Positions 5,398-35,000 of a stretch of 64,000 nt of DNA are shown here, piece after piece; positions within the stretch are counted from its first letter, which is position 1, and each line of letters opens with the position of its first letter. The translations under genes were made by a program, and so were the position numbers. The notes below the pieces were generated by a model. The model saw only the letters and a list, made by a program, of their open reading frames with translations. It made no database searches and was not told the DNA's origin. The stretch is from Candidatus Latescibacterota bacterium. Lineage in GTDB: Bacteria; Latescibacterota; UBA2968. Location of the stretch: assembly GCA_965204745.1 (NCBI GenBank), contig OZ242010.1, positions 4,096,001 through 4,160,000 of the forward strand. The letters run 5' to 3'.

Positions 5398-5589
5398 TCA
5401 GCCTGTCGAGCCAAAGCCGGCGGCGGAGATGAGGAAAAGGGATTCGATCTCTTGCTTTCGCATATAGGCCAGTGCATTCACACTCGCATCGCCAAAGGAC
5501 GGTGCCACGTTCGCGCTGATGGTGAGGAAGAAACTCAGGGTGTTCTCATCGCCATCTTCATCTGTGGCGGTCAGGGAACAGGCTTTCAT
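5398..5589 (-). pseudogene. Vestigial C-terminal fragment (Ig-like piece plus dockerin-like tail) behind gene A
   Basis: SLTATDEDGDENTLSFFLTISANVAPSF...FLISAAGFGSTG*; overlaps the gene A stop by ATGA and is homologous to 36672-36773. Confidence 0.55.
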
Positions 5590-8500
5590 TGGAAGTGGGA
5601 GTCGGGATAGAGGCTTCGGATGTAGGGTTCAATGGCTTGAGCGGTCGTGCGCGTAGCAGTTGGCTCGATGACGTTCCCTCTGACGAGGGCCTCGTTCCGG
5701 AAGAAGAGGACGTATCGAATGATCAGGATTATATCCGAGAACAGCCTCACATCGCCATCGCCATCCACATCGAGAATGTTCTGATTGACCAACGTGTCGA
5801 GGTAGGGTTCAATTTCTTGAGCGGTCTTGCGCGTGGCAGTTGGCTCGATGACGTTCCCTCTGAGGAGGGCCTCGTTCCGGAAGAAGAGGACGTATCGAAT
5901 GACCAGGATTATATCCGAGAACAATCTCACCCGGCCATCGCCATCCACATCCAAGTTGGCACTCGGTATCGCGGATTGGAGTTGAAATTGCACGGTGGTG
6001 TCCATGCCGGCATACTTCAAGACCGGGTACTGATTCGTCGCGCCAAAGGTCCACGGATCATCGCCGCCGGGTTGTCCGTCAAGGTTGGCATTCCAAGTGG
6101 AGAAGATGAGGGTGTAGCCGGTGGGGGATTGGAGCGCGCTGGTCGTCTGGCCGGTAACGCCGCCACCGCCGGCGCTGGTTGTGCAACCGTTGCTGCCGCC
6201 GGATGTACAGCCGCTGGTTTGGGTGTCCCAGTAGCTTGCGGTGCCGCCCGTGCCGGAGCCTATCAACCCGCCGATGGTTGTTAGCGTTCCGCTGGAGCGA
6301 GTAACCACGCCGGTGGAGTAGGAGTTCGTTACGGAGCCGCCTTGGCTTGCTCCGAGCAGTCCGCCGACGTGCTCAGGGCCGCTGACGGATGCGGTGGAGT
6401 AGCTTGAGGTAATCGCGTTGGGCGTCCATCCGACCAACCCGCCGGCGACCCTAGTCGTCGCCGAAACGTTGCCGGTGGAGTAGCAGGCGACGACTGTGCC
6501 GCGCAGGGCGCCGACCAGAGCGGCGGCATATTGGCCTCCCGCAACACTGGCGTTGGTTACGCCGACGGACTCGATGCGGGAGGCGGTGTCGGCGTTGCCG
6601 AATAATCCCACTTCAGTGAGGGAGGGTCGGTTGATGGTCAGGTTGTCGATAGTGTAGCCGTTGCCCTTGAAATCGCCGGTGTATCTGGCGGCGTCTGTGC
6701 CGATGGGTAGCCAGCCGTCGCCGTTGTTCCAGTAGGTGGCGTCTGCTTGGGTGATTTGGTCGTCGCCATTCTCGTCAAAGTCGAGGTTGTTGAGCAGTTC
6801 GTAGCCGGTGCAGGTTCCGGAAGGGCAACCCATCCGGCCATTGCTGGTGATGTCGCGGTCGGGAAAGGCGGCGTTGTAGGTCATGGTATCATTATCGGCG
6901 ACGACCCCATCGCCGTTGAGATCCCAGCGGATGGCATGTAGTTGCGCCAGCGTCTCAATGTCGATGAGGCCATCGCCATCGCTGTCGTAATTGATCGCGT
7001 AGGGCGTGCCCATGACCTCGTCCGAGGGCGTGCTATCGGTCCCACCTGCCAGGGTGGCAAGGACGCGCACTGTGTAGGGTGTGCCTATCGTCAGGTTCTC
7101 TATCGTGTAGGTCGTGGTGCTCCCTCCAGAGACCGTCTCCTGGCGGGAAGAAGTGTTGTAGCTTTGTCCACCGGACTTCCACTGCACCTTGTATCCCGTC
7201 GCGCCGGTTGCCTCGGTCCAAGCCACAACGAGTTGGACCGGCCCCGGCGTCACGCGCACATTGGTGGGCCTGGTTGTCGCCAAGGTCACCATGACTTCCT
7301 CCGAAGGAGCACTGTCGGCTACATTGGTACGCGTGGCGATGACGCGAATCGCGTAGGTCGTCTCTGCGGTCAGCCCAGAAATTTTGTAGGTCGTGGTGCT
7401 CCCGCCAGCGATGGTGGCTTGCCCGTGCGTGGCGGACTCCTCATCGGCGGCGGGATAAGTCTCTGACCCGGATTTCCACTGCACCTTATACCCGGTTGCG
7501 TTGGACACCGCATTCCAAGTCACGGTCAGCGTGTCCACCTTCGCCGCCACCATCACAGTCGGACTGCCCAGCAGGGGAACGCCGGTCACTTCCTCCGAGG
7601 GGGCACTGTCGGCTACATTGGTACGCGTGGCGATGACGCGAATCGTGTAGGTCGTCCCTGCGGTCAGCCCAGAAATTTTGTGGATCGTGGTGCTCCCGCC
7701 AGAGATAGTGGCTTGCCCGTGCGTGGCGGACTCCTCATCGGCGGCGGGATAAGTCTCTGACCCGGATTTCCACTGCACCTTATACCCTGTTGCGTTGGTC
7801 ACCGCATTCCAAGTCACGGTCAGCGTGTCCGCCTTCGCCGCCACCATCACAGTCGGACTGCCCAGCACGGAAACGCCGGTCTGCTCTGCCGACGGCCGAC
7901 CATCGGGCGCACCGGTCTTGGTGGCAATGACGCGCACTGTGTAGGTCGTCCCGGCGAGCAAGTTGGCGATCTTGTAGCGCGTCCCCGTGACGGTCTCCTC
8001 ACGCGAGGCGTCGTAGCTCTGCGCGCCCGATTTCCACTGTACCTTGTACCCCGTCGCATAACTCGCCGCGCGCCAACGCACATCCAAGGTGTCCCTTTGC
8101 ACCGTCACGGTCACACTTGTCGGAATGCCCGGCGGTTGCAAGTTATACTGCACGGTGGTATCCATGCCGGCATATTTCAACACGGGATACTGATCCGCCG
8201 CGCCAAAGGTCCACGGGTCGTCATTGCCAGGCCTGCCATCGACATCCACATTCCAATTGGCGTAGATGTCGTTGTAATCCGTTTCTGACCGCAACGCGCT
8301 GGTGGTCTTGCCCGTGCCGCCAGCACTAGTTGAGAGACTGCTACTTTCCGTATCCCAATAGCTATCGGGGCCTGTGCCAGAACCGGTAGCGAACAGACCG
8401 CCTGTCAGGTCGTTCGAATCCCCAGTCGCCGTCCCCGTGGCGTAGCTTGCCGTAATCGTACCGGCATTCTGACCCACGAGACCGCCAGCCGCTGATCTGG

Positions 8501-11500
8501 TGTTGCTCCCCCCTTGTCCCGCCACCGGCCCGGTAGCATAGGACGCTGTCACTGAAGCACCGCTACCCAGGAGACCGACCAACCCGCCGACTTCATAGAG
8601 GACGCTACTCTCCCAACTTGGCCACTTTTGTGCGGTGGCATGGGAATAGCAAGCCGCGATGTGACCGGCCAGTGCCCGGCCGACCAAACCGCCTACGCCG
8701 TAACGGGCACCCTCAACAAAACCGGTGACATAACAACCCGTTATGCGCCCGCCGTTCTGAGTACCAACTAACCCACCAACGACGTCTGTCGCGTGTACAT
8801 TGACATTGAGCAATCCAACCCCAGAAATATCGCCACTCACGGTTGAAAACAGCCCAACATTGTTCCTTTGGCTTGGCCATCGGTAGGATATATACAGATT
8901 GGAGATGGTCTTGTTATTACCTTTGAACGTACCGGTGTAAGTCCCGATGGGTATCCAGCCGGCACCACTGTTCCAGTAGGTGGCGTCTGCTTGGGTGATT
9001 GCGCCGTCGCCATTCTCGTCAAAGTCCAAGTTGTTGAGCAGTTCGTAGCCTGTGCAGGTTCCGGAAGGGCAACCCATCCGGCCATTGCTGGTGGTATCGC
9101 GGTTGGGAAAGGCGGCGTTGTAGTTCATGGTATCATTATCGGCGACGACCCCATCGCCGTTGAGATCCCAGCGGATGGCATGCAGTTGTGCCAGCGTCTT
9201 AATGTCGATGAGGCCATCGCCATCGCTGTCGTAATTGATCGTTTGGGGCATGCCCATGACCTCGTCCGAGGGCGTGCTATCGGTCCCACCTGCCAGGGTA
9301 GCAAGGACGCGCACCGTGTAGGTCGTGCCAAAAGTCAGGTTCTCTATCGTGTAGGTCGTGGTGCTGCCTCCAGAGACCGTCGCCTGGCGATCAGATGTGT
9401 TGTAGGTCTGTTGTCCGGATCTCCACTGCACCTTGTATCCCGTCGCACCGGTTGCCTCGGTCCAAGCCACAATGAGTTGGACCGGCCCCGGCGTCACGCG
9501 CACATTGGTGGGCCTGGTGGTCGCCAAGGTCACCATGACTTCCTCCGAAGGGGCACTGTCGGCTACATTGGTACGCGTGGCGATGACGCGAATCGTGTAG
9601 GTCGTCCCTGTGGTCAGCCCAGAAATTTTGTAGGTCGTGGTGCCCCCGCCAGCGATGGTAGCTTGCCCGCGCGTGACCAACGCCAGATCGGAGGTGGGAT
9701 AAGTCTCTGACCCGGATTTCCACTGCACCTTATACCCAGTTGCATCGTCCACCACATTCCAAGTCACGGTCAGCGTGTCCACCTTCGCCGCCACCATCAC
9801 AGTCGGAATGCCCAGCACGGGAACGCCGGTCACTTCCTCCGAGGGGGTACTGTCGGCTACATTGGTACGCGTGGCGATGACGCGAATCGCGTAGGTCGTC
9901 CCTGCGGTCAGCCCAGAAATATCGTAGGTCGTGGTGCCTCCGTCAGAGATTGTGGCTTGCCCGTGCGTGGCGGACTGCTCATCGGCGGCGGGATAAGTCT
10001 CTGACCCGGATTTCCACTGCACCTTATACCCGGTCGCCCCGTTCACCGCATTCCAAGTCACGGTCAGCGTGTCCACCTTCGCCGCCACCATCACAGTCGG
10101 AATGCCCAGCACGGGAACGCCGGTCTGCTCTGCCGAGGGCATGCCATCGCGGACACCGGTCTTGGTGGCAATGACGCGCACTGTGTAGGTCGTCCCGGTG
10201 AGCAAGTTGGCGATCTTGTAGCGCGTCCCCGTGACGGTCTCCTCACGCGAGGCATCGTAGTTCTGCGCGCCGGATTTCCACTGTACTTTGTACCCCGTCG
10301 CATTACTCGCCGCAGTCCAACGCACGTCCAAGGTGTCCGCTTTGGGCGTCACGGTCACACTTGTCGGAATGCCCGGCGGTTGCATTGCAAATTGTGCGGT
10401 GGTGTCCATGCCGGCATATTTCAACACGGGATACTGATCCGCCGCGCCAAAGGTCCACGGGTTGTCATTGCCAGGCCTGCCATCGACATCCACATTCCAA
10501 TTGGTGTAGATGCCGTTGTAATCCGTTTCTGACCGCAACGCGCTGGTGGTCTTGCCCGTGCCGCCAGCACTAGTTGAGAGACTGCTACTTTCCGTATCCC
10601 AATAGCTATCGGGGCCTGTGCCAGAACCGGTAGCGAACAGACCGCCTGTCAGGTCGTTCGAATCCCCAGTCGCCGTCCCCGTGGCGTAGCTTGCCGTAAT
10701 CGTACCGGCATTCTGACCCACGAGACCGCCAGCCGCTGATCTGGTGTTGCTCCCCCCTTGTCCCGCCACCGGCCCGGTAGCATAGGACGCTGTCACTGAA
10801 GCACCGCTACCCAGGAGACCGACCAACCCGCCGACTTCATAGAGGACGCTACTCTCCCAACTTGGCCACTTTTGTGCGGTGGCATGGGAATAGCAAGCCG
10901 CGATGTGACCGGCTAGTGACCGGCCGACCAAACCGCCTACGCCGTAACGGGCACCCTCAACAAAACCGGTGACATAACAACCCGTTATGCGCCCGCCGTT
11001 CTGAGCGCCAACTAACCCACCAACGACGTCTGTCGCGTGTACATTGACATTGAGCAATCCAACCCCAGAAATATCGCCACTCACGGTTGAAAACAGCCCA
11101 ACATTGTTCCTTTGGCTTGGATATCGGTAGGATATATACAGATTGGAGATGGTCTTGTTATTACCTTTGAACGTACCGGTGTAAGTCCCGATGGGTATCC
11201 AGCCGGCACCCCTGTTCCAGTAGGTGGCGTCTGCTTGGGTGATTTGGTCGTCGCCATTCTCGTCAAAGTCCAAGTTGTTGAGCAGTTCGTAGCCTGTGCA
11301 GGTCCCGGAAGGACAACCCATCCGGCCATTGCTGGTGGTGTCGCGGTTGGGAAAGGCGGCGTTGTAGTTCATGGTATCATTATCGGCGACGACCCCATCG
11401 CCATTGAGATCCCAGCGGATGGCATGCAGTTGTGCCAGCGTCTTAATGTCGATGAGGCCATCGCCATCCCTGTCGTAATTGATCCTTTGGGGCATGCCCA

Positions 11501-14500
11501 TGACCTCGTCCGAGGGCGTGCTATCGGTCCCACCTGCCATGGTAGCAGTGACGCGCACGGTGTAGGTCGTGCCAAAAGTCAGGTTCTCTATCGTATAGGT
11601 CGTGGTGCTGCCTCCAGAGACCGTCTCCTGGCGGGAAGAGGTGTTGTAGGTCTGTTGCCCGGACCTCCACTGCACCTTGTATCCCGTCGCACCGGTTGCC
11701 TCGGTCCAACGCACAATGAGTTGGTCCGGCCCCGGGGTCACGCGCACATTGGTGGGCCTGGTTGTCGCCAAGGTCACCATGACTTCCTCCGAAGGGGCAC
11801 TGTTGCCGGCCGTTGTGGTGTGCGTGGCGATGACGCGAATCGCGTAGGTCGTCTCTGTGGTCAGCCCAGAAATTTTGTGGATCGTGGTGTTCCCGCCTGC
11901 GATAGTGGCTTGCCCGCGCGTGGTCAACGCCAGATCGGAGGTGGGATAAGTCTCTGACCCGGATTTCCACTGCACCTTATACCCGGTTGCGAGGGGCACC
12001 GCATTCCAGGTCACGGTCAACGTGTCCACCTTCGCACTCACCTCCACACCCGTCGGGCTACCCAGCGTGAGAAGGGTGATCACTTCCTCCGAAGGGGCAC
12101 TGTCGGCTACATTGGTACGCGTGGCGATGACGCGAATCGCGTAGGTCGTCCCTGGGGTCAGCCCAGAAATATCGTGGGTCGTGGTGCCCCCGCCAGCGAT
12201 AGTGGCTTGCCCGTGCGTGGCGGACTCCTCATCGGCGTTGGGATAAGTCTCTGACCCGGATTTCCACTGCACTTTGTAGCTGGTCACCCCGTTCACCGCA
12301 TTCCAAGTCACGGTCAGCGTGTCCACCTTCGCATTCACCTCCACACCCGTCGGGCTACCCAGCAGGGGAACGCCGGTCTGCTCGGCCGAGGGCCGGCCAT
12401 CGCGGACACCGGTCTTGGTGGCAATGATACGCACTGTGTAGGTCGTCCCGCCGATCAAGTTGGCGATCTTGTAGCGCGTATCCGTGGTGATGGCCTGACG
12501 CGAGACGGCGTAGTTCTGCGCGCCGGATTTCCACTGCACCTTGTACCCCGTCGCATTACTCGGCGCACGCCAACGCACGTCCAAGGTGTCCCTTTGCACC
12601 GTCACGGTCACACTTGTCGGAATGCCCGGCGGTTGCATTGCAAATTGTGCGGTGGTGTCCATGCCTGCATATTTCAACACGGGATACTGATCCGCCGCGC
12701 CAAAGGTCCACGGAGCGTCATTGCCAGGCCTGCCATCGACATCCACATTCCAGTTGGCGTAGATGCCGTTGTAATCCGTTTCTGACCGCAACGCGCTGGT
12801 GGTCTGGCTCGTGCCGCCAGAACTGGATGAGCGACCACTACTTTCACTATCCCAGTAACTATGGGACACTCCGGATCGTGCAAACCCGATCAATCCGCCT
12901 AGTTGGCTGGAGTCATGTCTGCGCCCAGTGACTGTCCCCGTGGCATAGCTGGTACTAACCGAACTAGGATAAATGTCCAACCTCCCCACCAAACCGCCGA
13001 CCCTGTTATTTCCAGTCACCGGCCCGATAGCGTAGGACGCTATCACCGTAGCTTTTAGTCTGCCCACCAAACCGCCGGCCCCGTCATGATCCCACCCTCC
13101 GGAGACCTCAGCATTGGCATAGCTGGCCGCGATGACGGTATTATTACCGTTTGATTCACCCGCTAAACCGCCCACATCGTGACCAGTACCCTCAACGCGA
13201 CCCGTGACATAACAGCCCAGGATGCGACCACCCACCTGATTACCGACCAACCCACCCACTTGATTTCTGCCTCTTACATTGACACTTTTCAGCCCCAGAC
13301 CGGAAATGTTGCCGCTGACACGGCCGAACAGCCCAACATCATCCTGACCACGGTTGATGTGCAGGTTGGAGATGGTCTTGTTATTGCCCTTGAACGTGGT
13401 TGAGTAGGTGCCTCCGATGGGCGACCAGTTGGGGTAGGTGTCGGCAGAGGTTACGCTCCCGCTCCCGTCGGTGTCGAAATTTAGGTTGTTGAGCAGTTCG
13501 TAGCCGGTGCATGTCCCGGAAGGACAACCCATCCGGACGTTGCTGGTGGTGTCGCGGTTGGGAAAGGCGGCGTTGTAGTTCGTGATATCACTATCGGCGA
13601 CGATCCCATCGCCGTTGAGATCCCAGCGGATGGCATTGAGTTGCGCCAGCGTCTTAATGTCGATGAGGCCATTGCCATCGCCATCGTAATCGATCCCTTG
13701 GGGCGTGCCCATGACCTCGTCCGAGGGCGTGCTATCGCCCCCACCTGACAGGGTAGCAGTGACGCGCACCGTGTAGGTCGTGCCAAAAGTCAGGTTCTCT
13801 ATCGTGTAGGTCGTGGTGCTCATCCCAGAAACCGTCTCCTGGCGATCAGATGTGTTGTAGGTCTGTTGTCCGGACCTCCACTGCACCTTGTAGCCCGTCG
13901 CGCCGGTTGCCTCGGTCCAACGCACAATGAGTTGGACCGGCCCCGGCGTCACGCGCACATTGGTGGGTTTGGTTGTCGCCGAGGTCACCATGACTTCCTC
14001 CGAGGGGGCACTGTCGGCTAAATTGATATTGGTACTCGTGGCGATGACGCGAATCGTGTAGGTCGTCCCTGCGGTCAGCCCAGAAATTTTGTAGGTCGTG
14101 GTGCGCCCGTCAGAGATTGTGGCTTGCCCGTGCGTGGCGGCCTGAGAATCGGAGGTGGGATAAGTCGTTGCCCCGGATTTCCACTGCACTTTGTAGCCGG
14201 TCGCCCCGTTCACCGCATTCCAAGTCACGGTCAGCGTGTCCACCTTCGACGCCACCATCACAGTCGGACTGCCCAGCAAGGCGAGAACGCCGGTCTGCTC
14301 TGCCGAGGGTGTGCTATCGTTCGCACCGGTCTTGGTGGCAATGACACGCACTGTGTAGGTCGTCTCGCCGAGCAAGTTGGGGATCTTGTAGCGCGTCCCC
14401 GTGACGATCCCCTCACGCGAGGCGGCGTAGCTCTGCATGCCGGATTTCCACTGCACCTTGTACCCCGTCGCATAACTCGACGCACGCCAACGCACATCCA

Positions 14501-17500
14501 AGGTGTCCACTTTTGGCGTTACGGTCACACTGGTCGGAATGCCCGGCGGTTGCAAGTTATACTGCACGGTGGTGTCCATGCCGGCATATTTCAACACGGG
14601 ATATTGATCTGTCTTGCCAAAGGTCCACGGCTCGTCGTTGCCGGGTTGTCCGTCGAGGTTGGCGTTCCAAGTGGAGAAGATGAGGGTGTAGCCGGTGGGG
14701 GATTGGAGCGCGCTGGTCGTCTGCCCGGTAACGCCGCTACCGCCGGCGCTGGTTGTGCAACCGTTGCTACCGCCGGATGTACAGCCGCTGGTTTGGGTGT
14801 CCCAGTAGCTTGCGGTGCCGCCCGTGCCGGAGCCTATCAACCCGCCGATGAGTGGAGAACTGCCGGTGCCGGTAACCATGCCGATGGAGTAGGAGTTCGT
14901 TACGGTGCCGCCTTGGCTTGCTCCCAGCAGTCCGCCGACGTGCTCAGGGCCGCTGACGGATGCGGTGGAGTAGCTTGAGGTAATCGCGTTGGGCGTCCAG
15001 CCGACCAGCCCGCCGGCGGTCCTAGTCGTCGCCGAAACGCTGCCGGTGGAGTAGCAGGCGACGACTGTGCCGCGCAGGGCGCCGACCAGAGCGGCGGCAT
15101 ATTCGCCTCCCGCAACACTGGCGTTGGTTACGCCGACGGACTCGATGCGGGAGGCGGTGTCGGCATTGCCGAATAATCCCACTTCAACGACGGCGGGGCG
15201 GTTGATGGTCAGGTTGTCGATAGTGTAGCCGTTGCCCTTGAAATCGCCGGTGTATCTGGCGGCGTTTGTGCCGATGGGTAGCCAGCCGTCGCCGTTGTTC
15301 CAGTAGGTGGCGTCTGCTGAGGTGATTTCGCCGTCGCCATTCTCGTCAAAGTTGAGGTTGTTGAGCAGTTCGTAGCCGGTACAGGTTCCGGAAGGACAAC
15401 CCATCCGGACATTGCTGGTGATGTCGCGGTTGGGAAAGGCGGCGTTGTAGGCGGTCGTATCGCTGGTTGAGGCACTTGCGTCTATGGCACCATCGCCGTT
15501 GAGATCCCAGCGGATGGCATTGAGTTGCGCCAGCGTCTCAATATCGATGAGGCCATTGCCATCGCCATCGTAATCGATCCCTTGGGGCGTGCCCATGACC
15601 TCGTCCGAGGGCGTGCTATCGGCCCCACCTGACAGGGTAGCAGTGACGCGCATCGTGTAGGTCGTGCCAAAAGTCAGGTTCTCTATCGTGTAGGTCGTGG
15701 TGCTTCCCATAGAGACCGTCTCCTGGCGAGAAGAGGTGTTGTATGCCTGTTGCCCGGACTTCCACTGTATCTTGTAGCCCGTCGCGCCGGTTGCCTCGGT
15801 CCAACGCACAAGGAGTTGGAGATGCCCCGGCGTCACGCGCACATTGGTGGGCTTGTTTGTCGCCGCAGTCACCATGACTTCCTCCGAAGGGTCACTGTCG
15901 GGTATATTGACATTGGTATTCGTGGCGATGACGCGAATCGTGTAGGTCGTCCCTGCGGTCACATTGGAGATTTTGTAGGTCGTGGTGCTCCCGCCAGCGA
16001 TAGTGGCTTGCCCGCGCGTGGCCAACGCCAGATCGGCGTTGGGATAAGTCGCTGACCCGGATTTCCACTGTACCTTATACCCGGTGGCATGGTCCACGGC
16101 GTTCCAAGTCACGGTCAGCGTGTCCACCTTCGCACTCGCCATCACAGTCGGATTGTCCAGCGTGGACGCGATAAAGATGGATTGCTCTGAGGGTGTGCCA
16201 TCGCGCACACCGGTTTTGGTGGCAATGACACGCACTGTGTAGGTCGTCCCAAACGTCAAGTTGGGAATCTTGTGGCGCGTCCCCGTGGTGGTGGCCTCAC
16301 GCGAGTCGGTATCGTAGCTCTGCGTGCCGGATTTCCACTGCACCTTGTACCCCGTCGCACCACTCACCCCACGCCACCGCACGTCCAAGGTGTCCGCTAT
16401 TATCGTCATGGTCACACTTGTCGGAATGCTCGGCGGTTGCAAGTTATACTGCACGGTGGTGTCCATGCCGGCATACTTCAACACGGGATACTGATCTGTC
16501 TTGCCAAAGGTCCACGGATCATCGCCGCCCGGTTGCCCGTCCAAGTTCAGGTCCCAATTCGTCATGTAGATGCCGGTATAACCCGTGGGGCCTTGGAGCG
16601 CGGCGGTGGTCTGGGGAGCACCGCGTCCGGTGTCGCTACGTCTGGTGGTGGTTCTATCGTAGTAGCTGTGGGTAATTGATGAATTATTGTTGGTACCGAC
16701 CAAGCCACCAACATGTGAATTAGCACTGACCGGGCCGATGGCATAGCTACCGGTTATCGTGCTGGAATAGAAGTTGGCACCGACCAGGCCACCGGTGGTA
16801 TTGTTGCCTCTGACTACGCCGGTGGCATAGCTGGCGCGTATGACGGCCTTTGGGTTGCCGGTGTTGCCGTGGAAGCCCACCAGGCCGCCGACGTAAGCAT
16901 TGCCGCTGACTGCGCCGGTAGCATAGCTAGCGATTATCGTGCCGTCACTCCAGCCCACCAAGCCGCCGGTGCTTAGATTAGACCCAGTGACGTCCACCTC
17001 GGAACGACAGGCGGTAATGGTCGAGTTGCCGTGCGCCAGCCTGCCCACCAAGCCGGCGCTTCGTGCAAACCCGCTGACCCGTCCGGTGACGCGGATGTGC
17101 ATGAGCTGTAGATTGTTGCCTTCGCCAACAAGGACTGCGGTTTCAGCATTGCCGGTCACATTGGCGTTCACCAGGCTCAAATTGCGGATCGTGTTGCCCT
17201 CGGCATAGCCGAACAGCCCGGTTTTGCTGGCGGCAGAGCGGTCGATAAACAGGTTGGAGATGGTATAGTCGTTGCCGTGGAAGGTGCCGGTGTATTTCGT
17301 CGCACTGCTGCCGATGGGCGCCCAGCCTGCGCCGCTGTTCCAGTAGGTGGCGTCTGCTGAGGTGATTTCGTTGTCGCTGTTCTCGTCAAAGTTTAGGTTC
17401 GCCATCAGTTCGTAGCCGATACAGGTGGTCTCGCAACCCATCCCCGGCGGCCGGTTGGAGAAGGCGGCATTGTAGGCGGTCGTATCGCTGGACGTGGCAC

Positions 17501-18008
17501 TTGCGTCTATGGCACCATCGGCATTGAGGTCCCAGCGCATGGCATTGAGTTGCGCCAGCCCGGTTTGCCCAGCACCGAGTTCAATGAGGTTGTCGCCGTC
17601 GGTGTCGTAGTCGGTAAAATTGCCGGCAGAGACCGTATAGGTCAGCGTGGTCGTTCCCATAGCGGGGGAAACCACGATGCGAATGCTGACCGGCGGGGTG
17701 GACACGTCGACTTGGTGGCCGCTGGCCGGGTTGGCATCGGCCGGCGTGATGGCGACAGTTGCCCCCGAATTGGTTGGGGTCGCGGTCACGGTGATCTCTG
17801 TCGCGCCGGATTGAACGGCAAATGCGTAGGTGGTTTTATCGGATGCAAATGTGGAAAGCAGGGTGCCCGGCGCGAGGGTCAGCGCGCTGAGGGTCGTATC
17901 GGTATTCGAGGGCGTCGTCTGCGCTGTCGCGGGGGCGATCAGCAAGGGCATGACCAACACGGCGATCCAGGTTGGAAGGGACAGAAAACGAAAAGTAAAG
18001 AGCACCAT
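5586..18008 (-). CDS. Giant secreted adhesin-like protein A: signal peptide, cadherin-like beta-sandwich, 6 GLUG-like beta-helix modules, about 18 fibronectin type III repeats, tandem dockerin-like C-terminus
   Basis: 4140-aa ORF with signal peptide ending ATA|Q. FN3 motif LTVTWNAV..ATGYKVQWKSG...YTIRVIAT; modules DYDxDGDGLI..LAQL.A.RWDLN..GC...C.GYEL with GGLVG repeats; C-terminal LDVDGDG.VRLFSD twice. Confidence 0.9.
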   Translation of the reverse strand: MVLFTFRFLSLPTWIAVLVMPLLIAPATAQTTPSNTDTTLSALTLAPGTLLSTFASDKTTYAFAVQSGATEITVTATPTNSGATVAITPADANPASGHQVDVSTPPVSIRIVVSPAMGTTTLTYTVSAGNFTDYDTDGDNLIELGAGQTGLAQLNAMRWDLNADGAIDASATSSDTTAYNAAFSNRPPGMGCETTCIGYELMANLNFDENSDNEITSADATYWNSGAGWAPIGSSATKYTGTFHGNDYTISNLFIDRSAASKTGLFGYAEGNTIRNLSLVNANVTGNAETAVLVGEGNNLQLMHIRVTGRVSGFARSAGLVGRLAHGNSTITACRSEVDVTGSNLSTGGLVGWSDGTIIASYATGAVSGNAYVGGLVGFHGNTGNPKAVIRASYATGVVRGNNTTGGLVGANFYSSTITGSYAIGPVSANSHVGGLVGTNNNSSITHSYYDRTTTRRSDTGRGAPQTTAALQGPTGYTGIYMTNWDLNLDGQPGGDDPWTFGKTDQYPVLKYAGMDTTVQYNLQPPSIPTSVTMTIIADTLDVRWRGVSGATGYKVQWKSGTQSYDTDSREATTTGTRHKIPNLTFGTTYTVRVIATKTGVRDGTPSEQSIFIASTLDNPTVMASAKVDTLTVTWNAVDHATGYKVQWKSGSATYPNADLALATRGQATIAGGSTTTYKISNVTAGTTYTIRVIATNTNVNIPDSDPSEEVMVTAATNKPTNVRVTPGHLQLLVRWTEATGATGYKIQWKSGQQAYNTSSRQETVSMGSTTTYTIENLTFGTTYTMRVTATLSGGADSTPSDEVMGTPQGIDYDGDGNGLIDIETLAQLNAIRWDLNGDGAIDASASTSDTTAYNAAFPNRDITSNVRMGCPSGTCTGYELLNNLNFDENGDGEITSADATYWNNGDGWLPIGTNAARYTGDFKGNGYTIDNLTINRPAVVEVGLFGNADTASRIESVGVTNASVAGGEYAAALVGALRGTVVACYSTGSVSATTRTAGGLVGWTPNAITSSYSTASVSGPEHVGGLLGASQGGTVTNSYSIGMVTGTGSSPLIGGLIGSGTGGTASYWDTQTSGCTSGGSNGCTTSAGGSGVTGQTTSALQSPTGYTLIFSTWNANLDGQPGNDEPWTFGKTDQYPVLKYAGMDTTVQYNLQPPGIPTSVTVTPKVDTLDVRWRASSYATGYKVQWKSGMQSYAASREGIVTGTRYKIPNLLGETTYTVRVIATKTGANDSTPSAEQTGVLALLGSPTVMVASKVDTLTVTWNAVNGATGYKVQWKSGATTYPTSDSQAATHGQATISDGRTTTYKISGLTAGTTYTIRVIATSTNINLADSAPSEEVMVTSATTKPTNVRVTPGPVQLIVRWTEATGATGYKVQWRSGQQTYNTSDRQETVSGMSTTTYTIENLTFGTTYTVRVTATLSGGGDSTPSDEVMGTPQGIDYDGDGNGLIDIKTLAQLNAIRWDLNGDGIVADSDITNYNAAFPNRDTTSNVRMGCPSGTCTGYELLNNLNFDTDGSGSVTSADTYPNWSPIGGTYSTTFKGNNKTISNLHINRGQDDVGLFGRVSGNISGLGLKSVNVRGRNQVGGLVGNQVGGRILGCYVTGRVEGTGHDVGGLAGESNGNNTVIAASYANAEVSGGWDHDGAGGLVGRLKATVIASYAIGPVTGNNRVGGLVGRLDIYPSSVSTSYATGTVTGRRHDSSQLGGLIGFARSGVSHSYWDSESSGRSSSSGGTSQTTSALRSETDYNGIYANWNVDVDGRPGNDAPWTFGAADQYPVLKYAGMDTTAQFAMQPPGIPTSVTVTVQRDTLDVRWRAPSNATGYKVQWKSGAQNYAVSRQAITTDTRYKIANLIGGTTYTVRIIATKTGVRDGRPSAEQTGVPLLGSPTGVEVNAKVDTLTVTWNAVNGVTSYKVQWKSGSETYPNADEESATHGQATIAGGGTTTHDISGLTPGTTYAIRVIATRTNVADSAPSEEVITLLTLGSPTGVEVSAKVDTLTVTWNAVPLATGYKVQWKSGSETYPTSDLALTTRGQATIAGGNTTIHKISGLTTETTYAIRVIATHTTTAGNSAPSEEVMVTLATTRPTNVRVTPGPDQLIVRWTEATGATGYKVQWRSGQQTYNTSSRQETVSGGSTTTYTIENLTFGTTYTVRVTATMAGGTDSTPSDEVMGMPQRINYDRDGDGLIDIKTLAQLHAIRWDLNGDGVVADNDTMNYNAAFPNRDTTSNGRMGCPSGTCTGYELLNNLDFDENGDDQITQADATYWNRGAGWIPIGTYTGTFKGNNKTISNLYISYRYPSQRNNVGLFSTVSGDISGVGLLNVNVHATDVVGGLVGAQNGGRITGCYVTGFVEGARYGVGGLVGRSLAGHIAACYSHATAQKWPSWESSVLYEVGGLVGLLGSGASVTASYATGPVAGQGGSNTRSAAGGLVGQNAGTITASYATGTATGDSNDLTGGLFATGSGTGPDSYWDTESSSLSTSAGGTGKTTSALRSETDYNGIYTNWNVDVDGRPGNDNPWTFGAADQYPVLKYAGMDTTAQFAMQPPGIPTSVTVTPKADTLDVRWTAASNATGYKVQWKSGAQNYDASREETVTGTRYKIANLLTGTTYTVRVIATKTGVRDGMPSAEQTGVPVLGIPTVMVAAKVDTLTVTWNAVNGATGYKVQWKSGSETYPAADEQSATHGQATISDGGTTTYDISGLTAGTTYAIRVIATRTNVADSTPSEEVTGVPVLGIPTVMVAAKVDTLTVTWNVVDDATGYKVQWKSGSETYPTSDLALVTRGQATIAGGGTTTYKISGLTTGTTYTIRVIATRTNVADSAPSEEVMVTLATTRPTNVRVTPGPVQLIVAWTEATGATGYKVQWRSGQQTYNTSDRQATVSGGSTTTYTIENLTFGTTYTVRVLATLAGGTDSTPSDEVMGMPQTINYDSDGDGLIDIKTLAQLHAIRWDLNGDGVVADNDTMNYNAAFPNRDTTSNGRMGCPSGTCTGYELLNNLDFDENGDGAITQADATYWNSGAGWIPIGTYTGTFKGNNKTISNLYISYRWPSQRNNVGLFSTVSGDISGVGLLNVNVHATDVVGGLVGTQNGGRITGCYVTGFVEGARYGVGGLVGRALAGHIAACYSHATAQKWPSWESSVLYEVGGLVGLLGSGASVTASYATGPVAGQGGSNTRSAAGGLVGQNAGTITASYATGTATGDSNDLTGGLFATGSGTGPDSYWDTESSSLSTSAGGTGKTTSALRSETDYNDIYANWNVDVDGRPGNDDPWTFGAADQYPVLKYAGMDTTVQYNLQPPGIPTSVTVTVQRDTLDVRWRAASYATGYKVQWKSGAQSYDASREETVTGTRYKIANLLAGTTYTVRVIATKTGAPDGRPSAEQTGVSVLGSPTVMVAAKADTLTVTWNAVTNATGYKVQWKSGSETYPAADEESATHGQATISGGSTTIHKISGLTAGTTYTIRVIATRTNVADSAPSEEVTGVPLLGSPTVMVAAKVDTLTVTWNAVSNATGYKVQWKSGSETYPAADEESATHGQATIAGGSTTTYKISGLTAETTYAIRVIATRTNVADSAPSEEVMVTLATTRPTNVRVTPGPVQLVVAWTEATGATGYKVQWKSGGQSYNTSSRQETVSGGSTTTYTIENLTIGTPYTVRVLATLAGGTDSTPSDEVMGTPYAINYDSDGDGLIDIETLAQLHAIRWDLNGDGVVADNDTMTYNAAFPDRDITSNGRMGCPSGTCTGYELLNNLDFDENGDDQITQADATYWNNGDGWLPIGTDAARYTGDFKGNGYTIDNLTINRPSLTEVGLFGNADTASRIESVGVTNASVAGGQYAAALVGALRGTVVACYSTGNVSATTRVAGGLVGWTPNAITSSYSTASVSGPEHVGGLLGASQGGSVTNSYSTGVVTRSSGTLTTIGGLIGSGTGGTASYWDTQTSGCTSGGSNGCTTSAGGGGVTGQTTSALQSPTGYTLIFSTWNANLDGQPGGDDPWTFGATNQYPVLKYAGMDTTVQFQLQSAIPSANLDVDGDGRVRLFSDIILVIRYVLFFRNEALLRGNVIEPTATRKTAQEIEPYLDTLVNQNILDVDGDGDVRLFSDIILIIRYVLFFRNEALVRGNVIEPTATRTTAQAIEPYIRSLYPDSHFQ

Positions 18009-18193
18009 TTTAGTCTCCCTCCGAGGGGGGGGGGGGGGGGGGGGTACACTGTACTGATCATCCTAACAGACTGTTTTGCAATAAAATAGAACCGCGCTCC
18101 AAGACGGGGATGGGCGTCATGAACGCCAGTTTTCGCGGTGGAAACATAGGACCAAATGAGGTTCAAACAGCGGCTGAAAATGGCGGTAATCAT
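17939..18193 (-). CDS. Leader ORF of gene A running through the poly-C tract
   Basis: AAAGGAGA RBS before ATG 18193; MITAIFSRC...FIAKQSVRMISTVYPPPPPP; paralogue of 28841-29029. Confidence 0.6.
   Translation of the reverse strand: MITAIFSRCLNLIWSYVSTAKTGVHDAHPRLGARFYFIAKQSVRMISTVYPPPPPPLGGRLKWCSLLFVFCPFQPGSPCWSCPC
18025..18044 (-). repeat. C20 homopolymer (coding strand), putative phase-variation tract
   Basis: 20 consecutive G on the + strand, 16 nt upstream of the gene A ATG. Confidence 0.85.
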
Positions 18194-18276
18194 CTGAAGT
18201 CTCCTTTGCAAAAGCTATCGCGCAGACCGGGCGCGGCTTTTTCTCTGCGTTCAAAATCGCTATGGTGAACGAGAAA

Positions 18277-18306
18277 AATATAGGGAATCACACTCTTGTT
18301 TGTCAA
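18277..18306 (-). promoter_or_regulatory. sigma70-type promoter of cassette A
   Basis: TTGACA-18 nt-TATATT; positionally conserved in cassette B. Confidence 0.65.
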
Positions 18307-18323
18307 GCGGTAAAATGACGATG

Positions 18324-19000: not shown

Positions 19001-19043
19001 TTTTGTGTTTTTGTGCCTCTTGTGGCTAAAATCCCATCTCATC

Positions 19044-20969: not shown

Positions 20970-21049
20970 GAGAAACTCCAATCGGTAAGAGGGGAGACGG
21001 GAGAGGGAAGACGTAAGAGGGCCGCCCAGCCACCCCAAGTGGTCAGTGG

Positions 21050-22093: not shown

Positions 22094-22145
22094 TCGCTCC
22101 CAAAAAAAGTGGTGCCCCCAAGCCGCCACAATCGCGATTTTTTAC

Positions 22146-22730: not shown

Positions 22731-22790
22731 TACTCATCCTGATACCTTTCTGTTGACCCTTATTAACAGCGTGAGCAAATCAATAAGTGT

Positions 22791-23933: not shown

Positions 23934-23934
23934 G

Positions 23935-28727: not shown

Positions 28728-28756
28728 TTGACAAATAATAGCGTAATTTTTAATTT
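28728..28756 (+). promoter_or_regulatory. sigma70-type promoter of cassette B
   Basis: TTGACA-17 nt-TAATTT. Confidence 0.6.
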
Positions 28757-28840
28757 TTTACCCATTCGCTATTTCGATTTTGAGCGCGGAGGAAAGGCCG
28801 TGCCCGGTCTGCGCGACAGCTTTTGCAAAGGAGACTTCAG

Positions 28841-29029
28841 ATGATTCCCGCCATTTTTCGACGTTGTTCAAACCTGTTTAGAGGCCACCGTTCTCCTGCG
28901 AAAACGGGCGTTCATGGTGCCCATTCCCGTCTTGGAGTGCGGTCCTATTTCATTGCAAAACAGTCCGTTAGGATGATCAGTACAGTGTACCCCCCCCCCC
29001 CCCCCCCCTCGGAGAGGGGGACAAAATGA
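28841..29029 (+). CDS. Leader ORF of gene B ending in poly-Pro; stop overlaps the gene B start (ATGA)
   Basis: AAAGGAGA RBS; MIPAIFRRC...FIAKQSVRMISTVYPPPPPPSERGTK*. Confidence 0.6.
   Translation: MIPAIFRRCSNLFRGHRSPAKTGVHGAHSRLGVRSYFIAKQSVRMISTVYPPPPPPSERGTK
28990..29008 (+). repeat. C19 homopolymer, putative phase-variation tract
   Basis: 19 consecutive C, 17 nt before the gene B ATG. Confidence 0.85.
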
Positions 29030-32000
29030 TGCCCCGCTACGCTCACTTGTTGGCCCTGGTCGCGCTGGGCATGCTGGTGGCATCGGGGCCTGCTTTTGCC
29101 CAAACCGACTACGACATGGACAACGACCGCCTGATTGACATCACCTCCTTGGCGCAACTGAATGCCATTCGTTGGGATCTCAATGGCGATGGTGTTGTGT
29201 CGAGCACCGACTCTACAAACTATTTCACCGCCTTCAGTAACCCCGCCTCGGGCATGGGGTGTCCGTCCGCCGGCTGTAATGGCTACGAACTGCTCAACAA
29301 CTTGGACTTTGACGAGAACAACGACAACTCAATCACCTCAGCAGACGCCACCTATTGGAACAACGGCGCCGGCTGGCTACCCATCGGCACAAGCGCCAAC
29401 AGATACACAGGCAATTTCAAGGGCAACGGATACACCATAAACAACCTGTTCATCAACCGGTCCAACACCGAGCACATAGGGCTGTTCGGCTATACTGGAT
29501 CCGGCTACAGGGTAGAAACCCTAGGCGTAACTAACGCCAATGTAACGGGGAAAAACTATACCGGCATTCTGATAGGCGCCGGTGAGAATGGAGGCACAGT
29601 CGTCGCCTGTTACACTACTGGCTCGGTCACCGGCACCGGTACTTCTACCGGTGGTCTGGTAGGATACATAGACGGAACTATCTCCACTAGCTACTCCACT
29701 GCATCCGTCAGCGGAAATCGCGAAAACGGCGGTCTGTTGGGATTTCGGTATGGCAACAGTACCTCTGTAACAAACTCCTACTCCACCGGCAACGTCAGCG
29801 GCACAGGAAGCAACATCGGCGGGCTAATAGGCAGCTTTGCCCTGAGCGGTAGCGTTTCCGCCAGTTACTGGGATACCCAAACCAGCAACCGGAATAGCAG
29901 CCCCGGCGGCGGCACAGCACAGACCACCGACGCGCTCCGATCTCCCACCGGCTACACCGGCATCTACTCCACATGGAACGCCAACATAGATGGCAACGCC
30001 GGCAACGACGATCCCTGGGACTTCGGAACGTCATCGCAGTATCCGGTGCTGAAGTACGGCGGTCATTCCCTGGTTGCCCAGGGCCGACCGGCCACCGACT
30101 ACGACATGGACAACGACCGCCTGATTGACATCACCACCTTGGCGCAACTCAACGCCATTCGCCACGACCTCAACGGCAATGGCGACGCTACCCACGCCGA
30201 TTATGGCGCCGCCTTTCCCCTCCGCAACACCAGCAATACCGGCCGGATGGGTTGCCCGTCCGGGACCTGCACTGGCTACGAGTTGCTCAACAACTTGGAT
30301 TTTGACGAGAACAACGACGGCGCAATCACCCAAGCAGACACCACCTACTGGAATGGCGGCGCCGGCTGGGCACCCATCGGCAGTAGCAACACCGCCCCGT
30401 ACACCGCCACATTTGAGGGCAACGGCAAGACGATCTCCCACCTGTACATCAACCGCTACGTCAACTATTCGGGATTTTTCGCAAGTACGGATACCACTGC
30501 CCACATCCGCTCTTTGGGGTTGGTCAACGCGGTGATCAATACGGGTCAGGGCACGGTGGGCGCGCTGGTGGGTCTGAACAAGGGTCGGATCGCGGCGAGT
30601 TACGTCACGGGGTCGGTCAAGGCGAACACCAATGTCGGCGGGTTGGTGGGCGCCGCTCAGAGGGGGTCGTACATCGTGGCGAGTTACGCCACGGCGTCTG
30701 TGGTGTGCAATCAGTCGGGGCCGTGGGGCACTGGCGGAGGGTTGGTAGGTGCCAATGGTTCGGGTGCGACGATCGCGTCGAGCTACTCGCTGGGATCAGT
30801 GACGGGGGCCTGCCTGCACAAGCATGGGCTGGCGGAAAACTCAGGTACAGTGACCGATAGCTACTGGGACACGCAAACAAGCGACATTGCCGATGATAGC
30901 GATACTGTTGCGCCGGAGGGCAAGCTGACTGCCGACTTACAATCGGTCACGTCTGCGAGCGGCATCTATGCCAACTGGGACGATCTGACCATAGATGCTT
31001 CGGGGGCCAACAATGATGATCCCTGGACCTTTGGCACGACGAATCAGTATCCGGTCTTGAAGTTTGCCGGCCTGGACACCACGGCGCAGTACGCTGCCCA
31101 ACCCGTGAATTACGACACGGATAGCGATGGCCTCCTCGAGGTCTCGACCTTGGCCCAACTGCATGCCATGCGCTGGGATCTCAATGGCGATGGGGTCGTC
31201 GCCGATAGTGATGCCATGACCTACAACGCCGCCTTTCCCAACGGGAACTTGTCAGCGAGCAAGGGGTGTCCTTCCACAGGTTGCACTGGCTACGAACTGC
31301 TCAACAACTTGGACTTTGACGAGAACAACGACGGCGCGATCACCCAAGCAGACGCCACCTACTGGAATGGCGGTGCCGGCTGGGACCCTGTGGGGCCTTA
31401 CGGCGGCACGTTCAAAGGCAACAACAAGACGATCTCCCACTTGTACATCAACCGGGGGTCTCGGCATAATACAGGATTGTTCCATGCGGTTGATGGCGAT
31501 GTTTCGGGGTTGGGGTTGTTGAATGTGAATGTGACCGGTGCTGACCGCGTGGGTGGTCTGACCGGTAATCAAGGTGGTGGGGGCACCATCTCGTCGTGTT
31601 ATGTGACGGGTCGCGTTTCGGGGTCGCGGTGGGGTGTGGGTGGTTTGGTTGGTCGGTCTTATCGCACTTCGGGCACTAATCGCATTGTGAGCAGCTACGC
31701 GCTCGTCTCTGTGCGGGTTCCTGCACATGTGACGAGTGACGGATTGGCCGGCGGTTTGGTGGGTTGGCTGACCGATCAGACCGAGGTGGTGGCGTCTTAC
31801 GCGCTGGGCTCTGTGTTCGCGGGACACAGCAACGCGGTGGCCGGCGGGTTGGTGGGTCAAATCGCGAGCGGCGGTGGCGTGACCGCCAGTTACGCGACGG
31901 GCGCAGTCACGGGTGCCGGCACGAAAGGCGGGTTGGTGGGCAGTTCGGCTGGTACAGTGACCGATAGCTACTGGGACACGCAAACAAGCGGCATTGTCGA

Positions 32001-35000
32001 TGATAGCGATACGGTTGCGCCGGAGGGCAAGCTGACCTCCGACTTACAATCGATCACGTCTGCGAGCGGCATCTATGCCAACTGGGACGATCTGACCATA
32101 GATGCTTCGGGGACCAACGATGATGATCCCTGGACCTTTGGCACGACAAAGCAGTATCCGGTCTTGACGTTTGCCGGCCTGGACACCACGGCGCAGTACG
32201 CTGCCCAACCCGTGAATTACGACACGGATAGCGATGGCCTCCTCGAGGTCTCGTCCTTGGCCCAACTGCATGCCATGCGCTGGGATATCAATGGCGATGG
32301 TGCCATAGACTCAAGTGCCACGACCGCCGATACGACCGCCTACAACGCCGCCTTTCCCAACGGGAACTTGTCAGCGAGCAAGGGTTGCCCTTCCAGCGGT
32401 TGCACTGGCTACGAACTGCTCGCCAACCTGGACTTTGACGAGAACAACGATGGCGCAATCACCCAAGCAGACGCCACCTACTGGAATAGCGGCCAAGGCT
32501 GGATGCCCATCGGCTCCGACGCCAGCCCAGCGTTACGATACACAGGCGATTTCAAAGGCAACGGCTACACCGTCCAAAACCTGTTCATCAGCCGCAACAC
32601 CGTTAGCTACCAAGCACTGTTCGGCGGCACCGGCACCAACTCCCGCATCGAGTCACTGGGCGTAACCGACGCCGATGTTACGGCAGACGACTTTAGTGGC
32701 ATTCTGGTCGGCGGCAATCGCGGCGAAATCGTCGCCTGCTACACCACCGGTCGCATGACGGGCGACAATGTCGTCGGCGGTCTGGTCGGCTGGACCGGAG
32801 GCTCCATTTCCACAAGCTACTCCCTCGCATCCGTCAGCGCAACTGAGAGGCTCGGCGGATTGGTAGGCTCAAAAGCCGCCGCCGGCTCCATAACAAACTC
32901 CTACTCCACCGGCGCGGTCAGCCTCTCCAGCGGGTCGATGACATCTATCGGCGGGCTGTTGGGCGAGTCGAATGCCGGCACAGGCACGGTTAGCGGCAGC
33001 TACTGGGATACCCAAACCAGCGGGCGCACAACCAGCCTCGGCGGTAGCGGCGCGGCGGGCAAGACGACCAGCGATCTTCAGAGCCCCACCACCTACGGTG
33101 CCACCAGCAACGACACCTACTACGGTTGGAACGCCAACATAGACGGACAACCCGGCAACGACGATCCGTGGACCTTTGGCGCGATGGATCAGTATCCGGT
33201 CTTGAAGTATGCCGGCCTGGACACCACCGTGCAATTTCAGCTCCAACCCGCGGTCGTGACGTTGGCACTGACGCCCTCGTCGATCTCGGAAAACGGCGGG
33301 ATGAGCACTGTGACCGCGACGCTGGCATACCCATCGAGCGCGGCGACGACGATCACGGTGCGCCCTGTGGCGGGGGCTTACACGGTGGCGGCGGATTCGA
33401 CGATCACCATACCGGCCGGGAGCACTGCGAACGTGTCGGATACGGTGGTCATCACAGCGGTGGACAATACCCAAGACGCGCCTAATCGCGACGTGGACAT
33501 GTCCGTTGTGGCGGGCAACGCCCAAGGCGCGGGCAGTGTGACCGAGGCGACTTTAACGATCACAGACGACGACCCTGCACCGACAGCGACGTTGGCGGCG
33601 TCACCGGCGTCGATTTCGGAGAACGGCGCGGTTTCGACGGTCACGGCGTCGCTCTCGCGTCCATCGAGCACGGCGACGACGATCACGGTGCGTCCTGTGG
33701 CGGGTGCTTACACGGTGGGGGCGGATACGACGATCACCATCGCGGCCGGGGACACGATTAACGCGTCGGACACGGTGGTCATCACAGCGGTGAACAATAC
33801 CCAAGACGCGCCTAATCGCGACGTGACCGTGTCCGGTGTGTCGCGCAACGCCCAAGGCGCGGGCAGTGTGACCGGGGCGGCTTTGACGCTGACAGACGAC
33901 GACGCTGCGCCGGACGTGACGATGGTTTTGTCGCCTGCGTCGATTACAGAGAACGGCGGTGTCTCGACCGTGACAGCGAGGCTGTCTCACACGTCGAGCG
34001 ATCCGACGACGATTACGGTGACAGTGGCACCTGTGTCACCTGCGGTTATGACCGACTACACGATAAGTACGCCGGCCACGCTGACCGTCGCGGCGGGGCA
34101 AACGATGAGCACGGGCACCGTGACGATCACAGGGGTGAATAACGCCGATGCTACGGGGAACAAGACGGTGACCGTGTCGAGTACGCTAACCAACAGCGTA
34201 GGCACGGGATCGGTCACTGATGTGACGCTGACGCTTACCGATGACGACGTGCCGAACGTGACGTTGGTTTTGACTCCTTCGTCGATTACGGAGAATGCCC
34301 AGGTTTCCACGATCACGGCGACGCTGGATCGCATCACAAACATGGCGACGACGGTCACGGTTTCAGCGACCGCGGTGGCCCCTGCGGTTGCGGGCGATTT
34401 TACGCTATCGACCGAGACCACGCTGACCTTCGCGGCGAATGTGACGACGAGCACGGGCGCCGTGACGATCACCTCGGTGAACGACACGACCGATGCACCG
34501 GACAAGCGCGTGACCGTGTCTGCAACGGTGACGGGTGGCAATGGGGCGTCGCTATCGTCTGCCGTGACCCTGACGATCACAGACGATGAGGCCGCGCCGG
34601 ATGTGGCACTGACGCTGTCGCCCGCGTCGATTGCAGAGACCGGCGGTGTTTCGACGATCACGGCGACGCTGTCGCATGCGTCGAGCGCGGCAACGACGAT
34701 CACAGTGCGTCCGGTGGCGGGTGCTTACACGGTGGGGTCGGATTCGACGATCACCATCGCGGCAGGGAACACGGCGAACGCGTCGGACACAGTAGAGATC
34801 ACGGCCGTGGACAACGCGACCGATGCGCCCAACAACGATGTGACCGTGTCTGTTGTGGCGAACAACGACCAAGGCGCAGGCAGTGTGACCGGCATGGATT
34901 TGACGATCACAGACGATGACGCCGCGCCGAACGTGACACTAATGCTGTCGCCCGCGTCAATCTCGGAGAACGGCGGCGTGAGCACGGTGAGCGCGACGCT

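Follow-up and report, generated by a model that had tools for sequence, protein, structure and literature searches.

Two giant surface-protein genes lie in a 64,000-nt stretch of the genome of a Candidatus Latescibacterota bacterium (assembly GCA_965204745.1, contig OZ242010.1, positions 4,096,001 to 4,160,000 of the forward strand; this whole stretch is called the window), and each is headed by the same 5' cassette. The parts of the cassette follow one another in a fixed order: a Shine-Dalgarno sequence (SD) and ATG, a leader open reading frame (ORF) of 50 codons, a poly-C tract, a second SD and ATG, and a signal peptide. About 35-37 copies of it are found in the 5.48-Mb genome. I propose that this portable cassette is probably a contingency system spread over many loci, in which the length of the tract sets what becomes of leader ribosomes when they reach the second start. 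Judged by its sequence, it would be phase variation mediated by a simple sequence repeat (SSR), in a new variant and on an unusual scale.

The mechanism would work as follows. A hypermutable poly-C tract sits inside a leader ORF that would be translated, and only a few bases separate the tract from the SD of a giant secreted surface protein downstream. Slippage would alter the length of the tract, and that length modulo 3 would direct the leader ribosomes onward. Since runs of C encode proline in every frame, the leader would always be translated into the tract. In the first of three states, here called coupled, ribosomes would stop on or beside the ATG of the surface protein and reinitiate there after termination, giving the native protein with its own signal peptide. 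In the second, fusion, they would run in frame into the gene, and the product, begun at the strong leader start, would be a protein extended at its N-terminus. In the third, overrun, they would continue out of frame 70-130 nt into the gene, leaving its start neither coupled nor free, and expression would probably be lowest. One mutable tract would then have three outcomes rather than ON and OFF, owing to the position of the repeat within a translated leader, a single ribosome footprint before the second start. With about 24 independently variable loci, a population could present many combinations of surface proteins. The sequence agrees well with these three states; what I infer from it is switching within a population, how strongly each state is expressed and the part played by stalling at prolines.

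Copy A of the cassette lies on the minus strand. As a sequence-only reading of the window had claimed, a strong ribosome-binding site (AAGGAG, 18206-18201, 7 nt before the ATG at 18193) and this ATG open 50 conserved codons into a tract of 20 C's (C20, 18025..18044, C on the sense strand and Pro codons whatever the frame); the last of these codons is TAC, whose C is the first base of the tract. After C20 comes TCGGAGGGAGACTAAA and then the ATG of adhesin A at 18008, and the adhesin has, as also claimed, an SD of its own, GGAGGGAG at 18022-18015, 6 nt before its ATG. The leader ORF as assembled occupies 17939..18193 (84 codons, stop at 17941-17939) and consists of the 50 conserved codons, the Pro run and a 28-codon out-of-frame overrun across the adhesin start. 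Copy A is in the overrun state, its leader frame ending 70 nt past the adhesin ATG. Adhesin A itself (5586..18008, minus strand, 4140 amino acids) carries its own signal peptide, MVLFTFRFLSLPTWIAVLVMPLLIAPATAQ, and contains 18 fn3 stretches together with Cadherin-like and GLUG domains.

Copy B lies on the plus strand and has the same parts: the leader SD AAGGAG (28828..28833), a leader ORF of 62 codons (28841..29029), a C19 tract (28990..29008), a second SD, GGAGAGGGGGA (29011..29021), and the ORF of surface protein B (29026..36675; 2549 amino acids, signal peptide MMPRYAHLLALVALGMLVASGPAFAQ). It is in the coupled state with a gap of -4, the leader stop TGA (29027-29029) overlapping the ATG of surface protein B as ATGA. 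Tracts of at least 14 C's occur twice in the window and not once in 100 shuffles of it.

The sequence-only reading had overlooked the scale of the cassette, 35-40 copies, and also the existence of paralogues that have lost the tract and in which the leader ATG serves as the start. The region of 322 nt before adhesin A has matches at 40 places of the genome. A profile built from an alignment of 14 leader peptides finds 37 matches there, none with a stop inside the match, and a scan for the start M[IL]xx[IV]FxxCxN finds 35 copies: 23 with a tract of C12-C25, 8 with a short or interrupted run of C4-C6, 3 with the tract deleted and 1 degenerate. Beyond these 35, one extra long tract (C25) stands behind a leader without a 5' end. 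The cassette accounts for 24 of the 33 runs of C or G of at least 10 nt in the genome, all of the 24 with C on the sense strand; runs of A or T reach 12 nt at most. Most copies have the context AAAGGAG(G/A) ahead of the leader ATG. The ORFs downstream are mostly 838-6292 amino acids long and total about 84,000 codons, 4.6% of the genome. They begin, at the inner ATG, with three unrelated types of signal peptide (MMPRYAHLLALVALG..., MVLFTFRFLSLPTW... and MTMFSRIYPVFIVLFG...), and the cassette is modular for this reason: it serves at least three signal-peptide types across its 35-40 copies and is not confined to adhesin A and surface protein B. Near one copy (m5306714, genome about 5293900-5306850) the inner-ATG ORF has 1752 amino acids, and neighbouring frames of 2023 and 2458 amino acids hold more modules.

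The distribution of the cassette is narrow. Of the 21 genomes of the genus, 3 carry it, with 37 profile matches in the genome of the window, 15 in the congener G018 and 1 strong match in G016. A pattern-limited scan of one genome per species (185,579 species) found only these two relatives, whose records are labelled uncultured Latescibacteria or Candidatus Latescibacterota. Leader identity among the three species is about 73%, and long tracts persist in all of them. A profile search of 1.84 billion representative proteins gave 24 matches (17 short ones and 7 of 306-2446 amino acids), of which 21 start no later than residue four of the predicted protein, as do all 19 with an E-value of 1e-10 or better. 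In the JGI metagenomes an exact 23-nt pattern of leader end plus tract matched nothing, and the leader profile found no relative. DNA of the bacterium itself was detected in 17 public runs from 9 studies, no RNA run being among those listed, with run labels that include sponge and marine metagenome, and the bacterium is apparently sponge-associated. Literature searches returned no description of this cassette nor of phase variation in Latescibacterota; the only co-mention of 'Latescibacteria' and 'phase variation' among the texts returned concerns flagellins. An assembly artefact is rejected, since three closed genomes, and other assemblies as well, have the tracts at homologous sites.

Is the leader translated? 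The family of about 35 copies gives strong support to the view that it is a real, selectively maintained ORF, as the sequence-only reading had supposed. Its frame contains no stop in 31 copies from this genome and 7 related ones, while the shifted frames contain 108 and 49. Parsimony counts 403 changes in the family; 3.4% of possible substitutions would make a stop, so 13.6 stops are expected under neutrality, and the probability of finding none is about 1e-6. Insertions in the leader are 12 and 33 nt long, both multiples of three. The pooled ratio of nonsynonymous to synonymous substitution rates (dN/dS, Nei-Gojobori) is 0.47 in the leader frame versus 0.83 and 1.30 in the shifted frames; changes by codon position number 140/116/147, third positions being only mildly enriched. 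Across species the open frame is conserved along with the two ends of the peptide, MxxAIFxRCxN and YxIAKQxVRxIxTxY, the latter kept in all three species right before the Pro run; eight copies hold just 1-2 prolines. A conserved RNA fold was looked for in the leader and not found (RNAalifold -3.5 against -1.15 +/- 1.6 for column shuffles).

The frames behave as the model asks. With the spacer of copy A, natural paralogues with C15 are fusions, those with C19 stop 1 nt before the ATG and those with C20 overrun it, which bears out the arithmetic of the sequence-only reading. Among the 23 long-tract copies, fusion is the state of 10, coupling (gap -4 or +1) of 9 and overrun of 4. The eight copies with collapsed tracts (C4-C6) divide into 3 fusions, 4 coupled and 1 overrun, and nine classified copies in G018 fall into the three states three by three. 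In coupled copies the leader stop mostly overlaps the start as ATGA or else ends 1 nt before the ATG. This stop at the ATG is retained in one frame in every spacer subfamily and in the congener, where every spacer ends AAATGA. Overrunning leaders stop 70-119 nt inside the gene in the four long-tract copies and 130 nt inside it in the collapsed C6 copy. That tract length selects the state is thus upheld in part: all three configurations occur naturally, and the reading as a whole is partly supported.

Tracts differ in length from paralogue to paralogue, from species to species and from one assembly to another. Paralogues in the genome have C12-C25 and those in the congener G018 have C9-C31. Other assemblies yielded 31 predicted short-leader proteins, and 4 of these, not this genome's own, have leaders with 98% identity to a copy here; all 4, putative orthologues at most, differ from that copy in the length of the Pro run and in the downstream frame. 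In a public protein from another assembly (P0025), whose leader is near-identical, the fusion frame holds through MMP; the frame then changes, apparently within the CCCC of signal-peptide codons 3-4, which would be either another slippery site or an error in the sequencing. Contigs from public runs over 17500-29500 (X1, X2, X3, X10) are short and end at the tracts or jump between them (joint from 18046 to 28989). The sequence-only reading had worried that copies A and B, each one C short of fusion, might betray a homopolymer under-call. Of the 23 long-tract copies 10 stand in frame, 8 lack one C and 5 have one C too many, so a systematic one-base under-call that masks universal fusions is rejected, and A and B are not part of one.

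Several considerations weigh against the three-state account. The sequence-only reading had drawn its case for a translated leader from a comparison of A with B, and the particulars hold: the two leaders are unlike at 28 of their 150 nt (9/6/13 for the three codon positions), there are no indels, 7 codons differ synonymously and 13 non-synonymously, and YFIAKQSVRMISTVY is invariant. As proof of translation, however, the pair alone is weak, because upstream of the leader the divergence is equally large (23 of 120 nt). When the 7 related copies are taken by themselves, dN/dS in the leader frame is 0.86. The copies were selected by an open N-terminal motif, which biases the count of stops, though no more than 1 of the 35 is degenerate. 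The counts of the three frames are indistinguishable from uniform (chi-square p 0.44), a result predicted by free switching and by noise as well. The collapsed C6 copy overruns its start and yet retains an intact ORF of 3756 amino acids, a poor fit to overrun as a dead OFF state. Tract lengths come from consensus assemblies, and any single locus is possibly one base off. With tracts of C15-C25, slippage by RNA polymerase or the ribosome could mix frames in one cell. Finally, the sequence-only reading had suggested that the adhesin SD pairs with the C-run. Predicted pairing probabilities of the SD are 0.43-0.93, with the C-run as partner in two subfamilies (about 0.5-0.67) and codons 2-4 in another, but the SD hairpins of A and B are no more stable than those of shuffled sequence (z -0.34 and -0.63), so SD masking is dropped as evidence.

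It might be objected that one start suffices. The cassette would then be an ordinary two-state frame switch of the opa type, with translation beginning at the leader ATG, the tract lying in the N-terminal coding region, an in-frame length alone being ON, and the inner ATG a mere methionine. The leader start looks fit for this role. Its SD and ATG are strong and conserved, gene callers give leader-headed fusions of 306-2446 amino acids in 7 of the 24 public representatives, and 10 of the 23 long-tract copies are in frame. Then there are the copies without a tract. All four profile-matched copies from which it has been deleted have leaders in frame with the ORF that follows (1795, 1915, 2496 and 6972 amino acids). 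Five short-form genes, near 2619988(-), 3152201(+), 3988377(-), 3793145(+) and 5088362(-) of the genome, have leader codons 1-7 joined in frame to a signal-peptide core (MIxALFRSRLLALVALG...) and possess no tract, inner SD or inner ATG. Since the junction is identical in all five, a single deletion is their probable origin; possibly, though, they are the ancestral form. In these nine derived genes no start other than the leader ATG is plausible. By eye, the N-terminus of the leader loosely resembles the type-2 signal peptide.

The trouble with a single start is that the inner ATG looks like a working start too. It exactly heads canonical signal peptides of three types unrelated to one another, and it stands 6-9 nt behind a GGAG-type SD core that is kept in every spacer subfamily while the spacer diverges. 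For one of the frames, a stop within 4 nt of it is likewise retained throughout the subfamilies and in the congener. Four copies with collapsed tracts (C4-C5), locked in the coupled and hence non-fused state, keep intact ORFs of 1543-3765 amino acids, and in one paralogue, which retains about the last 35 nt of the leader, the leader start is missing. It would be atypical for a signal-peptide core to lie 65 residues into the protein, and no known extension was matched: two leader peptides match no Pfam family at E-values up to 1, and two fused N-termini give only sub-threshold noise against Pfam, with ESPR not matched. I consider the two-state switch unlikely, and two starts, of which the tract would choose the use, remain the better account.

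A second objection is that the frame does not matter. The C-run might act at the level of RNA, as a Rho loading site that ribosomes shield or expose by pausing on the proline codons or as the target of a G-rich small RNA, tuning expression gradually. Poly(C) is the best activator of Rho, both rho and efp are present in the genome, and tracts of up to C25-C31 go far beyond what a frame switch needs. Rho utilization (rut) sites in E. coli are described as cutting translation of polyproline mRNA about 30-fold without EF-P, ribosomes on upstream open reading frames (uORFs) as masking rut sites in tnaC, speFL and cruR (PMC12360218), and the variable G-repeat in the H. pylori tlpB leader as the target of the small RNA RepG (PMC8295292). 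A frame-independent device leaves unexplained, however, the stop at the inner ATG, the conserved ends of the peptide and the in-frame deletions. No terminator-like site lies between tract and gene start in A or B, where the tract ends 16-17 nt from the ATG. Such an effect is compatible with the frame model and does not exclude it; as a replacement for it I think it distinctly unlikely.

Perhaps the tracts do nothing, being slippage-prone relics spread with a duplicated 5' region, their frames the product of drift and of homopolymer error in long reads. The uniform frame counts would follow, the cassette travels with a massively expanded family (its client module occurs 136 times), eight tracts have collapsed and several are deleted, and two of the downstream ORFs have just 59 and 128 amino acids. 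Against this, long tracts persist in three species whose leaders have diverged to about 73% identity. An orthologous locus outside the family keeps a long tract of different length in two species (C19 against C23), unexpected under neutral decay. Nor would neutrality leave the leader frame open where 13.6 stops are expected. With mutS and mutL present, lost mismatch repair is rejected as the reason why the tracts are long. That they have no role is, in my judgement, very improbable.

Least probable of the four is recoding, in which slippage of RNA polymerase or +1 slippage of the ribosome on CCC-C at C15-C25 makes all three products at each locus in a fixed mixture, the length in the DNA mattering little; CCC-C sites are prone to +1 shifts, suppressed by EF-P and by tRNA modification, and all three frames do give interpretable outcomes. 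Homopolymer runs cause transcriptional slippage in bacteria (PMC1088944), but that work analysed runs of A and T, and the eight collapsed tracts (C4-C6) and precise in-frame deletions suggest that selection sees the DNA state.

The contingency model, which survives these rivals as the probable one, leaves room for a further role of the prolines. Pausing at proline and Rho loading at poly-C are both plausible by analogy, given the polyproline result in E. coli and the rut sites masked by uORFs. A bolder idea, to which I give little credence, is that the leader is a polyproline arrest peptide tunable in length, whose conserved N-terminus and tunnel segment YFIAKQSVRMISTVY would park the ribosome on the adhesin SD and the poly-C Rho-loading site. 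If this were true, each of about 24 loci would integrate a heritable setting (the length and frame of the tract) with a physiological one (EF-P activity or secretion load), and an uncultured animal symbiont would have a surface coat both combinatorial and sensitive to conditions.

Reading into poly-C may not be peculiar to this leader. A C19 tract at 1833000-1833018 of the genome is read into by another short ORF (MSRLDLFGRGFYVYKKQQLT, then prolines), which is unrelated to the leader and likewise has an SD; the tract lies 15-40 nt ahead of the start of a secreted protein of 289 amino acids. The orthologue in G018 keeps the ORF (MSRFNSFLRGRYVYTKQQLT) with a tract of C23. Their sequences suggest that translation into poly-C has been used more than once in this lineage, and as a second, unrelated leader this ORF hints that it is a general device there. 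More long C tracts (C20-C24) are found outside the leader family, at 732472-732492 in this genome and one each in G010, G023 and G018. Ahead of several of the tracts outside the family is an ORF that begins with ATG and stays open into the C's, and many are preceded by the dinucleotide TA. The tract at 732472 is close to where a frame of more than 1029 amino acids has its 5' end.

Other features surround the two cassettes in the window. Upstream of the leader of copy A is a promoter-like site (18277..18306, minus strand; TTGACA, 18 nt, TATATT), which is a consensus match only, 11 of 12 positions. Its TTGACA, the -35 hexamer, aligns with an identical hexamer in copy B (28728..28733, plus strand), where a promoter scan called no full promoter (weak -10). 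The 5' untranslated region of copy A holds a small G+C hairpin directly before the leader SD (18219..18235, minus strand), terminator-like with 5 pairs and a weak T tail; it is also in copy B, with one G-U pair. Surface protein B is built of repeats of a Ca-loop module of about 125 amino acids and matches no Pfam or NCBIfam family. The genome contains 136 occurrences of this module and G018 has 22; four other congeners have 1-3 each, and the remaining 15 genomes of the genus gave no match.

Interspersed repeat elements (family D15), with a CCCCCTTCCTCGCAGGAAGGGGG hairpin, flank the cassettes at 18302-19103, 28327-28727 and 36929-37137. Their summed word depth in public contigs of run X1 is 12,000-21,000, compared with about 57 for unique DNA. 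The only Rfam match in 17000-30000, to a microRNA family at 18328-18532, falls on one of these repeat elements and is treated as chance, scoring 35 bits against a gathering score of 230. Between the two cassettes, the segment 22741-24528 carries an ORF of the TnpB family (22791-24440, minus strand). The segment is skipped in the contigs of two runs, which join 22740 to 24529 with 24 other letters between, and its depth is about 20-fold above that of its flanks, which indicates a multi-copy element with insertion polymorphism.

SSR contingency loci are known almost solely from pathogens with small genomes. Here some 35 giant adhesin-like genes would be under repeat control in an uncultured candidate phylum, and the cassette offers a handle on how a symbiont may vary its surface towards host or phages. 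It also accounts for why gene callers split or fuse these genes or mark them as frameshifted, and it serves as a warning that homopolymer calls in genomes from long-read metagenomes carry biology.

How does the cassette compare with known systems? Like other SSR contingency loci it has a repeat prone to slip, and by the logic of its sequence a change of one unit would alter expression or the product. Like a uORF, the leader has its own SD and start, appears to be translated, and stops at the downstream start in one of the three frames. The closest precedent is pil1 of S. gallolyticus, a species that has a second locus of the pil1 type. In pil1, GCAGA repeats change the length of a leader peptide, whose ribosomes then destabilise a stem-loop terminator (Danne et al. 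2014, PMC3894217). Both systems place an SSR in a translated leader-peptide gene ahead of surface-structure genes, and in both, as pil1 is described and the cassette is proposed to work, repeat number sets how far ribosomes travel and makes downstream expression stochastic. The pil1 repeats are pentamers acting on a transcription terminator, whereas the cassette has a C homopolymer abutting an SD, with no terminator in between. The fusion state and coupling through ATGA are features of the cassette that the pil1 described there lacks, and pil1 is described as one locus, compared with about 35 for the cassette.

Other systems resemble the cassette in part. The opa genes of Neisseria are likewise multi-copy genes for surface adhesins with a 5' repeat per copy, in the signal-peptide region, that switches independently and combinatorially. 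Their CTCTT repeats, however, lie inside a single ORF and give two states, with no leader stop or second start after the repeat. The vlp genes of Mycoplasma hyorhinis share with the cassette a conserved 5' homopolymer for variable surface proteins with a common signal peptide, as do the fim genes of Bordetella; there the homopolymers lie between promoter hexamers and act on the initiation of transcription, while the tract of the cassette is about 230 nt downstream of the promoter-like site, inside an ORF. In H. pylori tlpB a variable homopolymer in the mRNA leader also modulates translation downstream, but as described the control is gradual, works through a small RNA, RepG, acting in trans, and leaves the tract untranslated (PMC8295292).

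The last 15 residues of the cassette leader before the putative pause site are conserved, and prolines stand at that site, a likeness to arrest peptides. SecM, MifM and VemP are further examples of control by such peptides. In tnaC, speFL and cruR too a short conserved leader peptide is described, and the position of the ribosome on it controls the next gene (PMC12360218). The uORF and arrest-peptide systems answer to a ligand or to the force of secretion, whereas the cassette would answer to a mutable tract.

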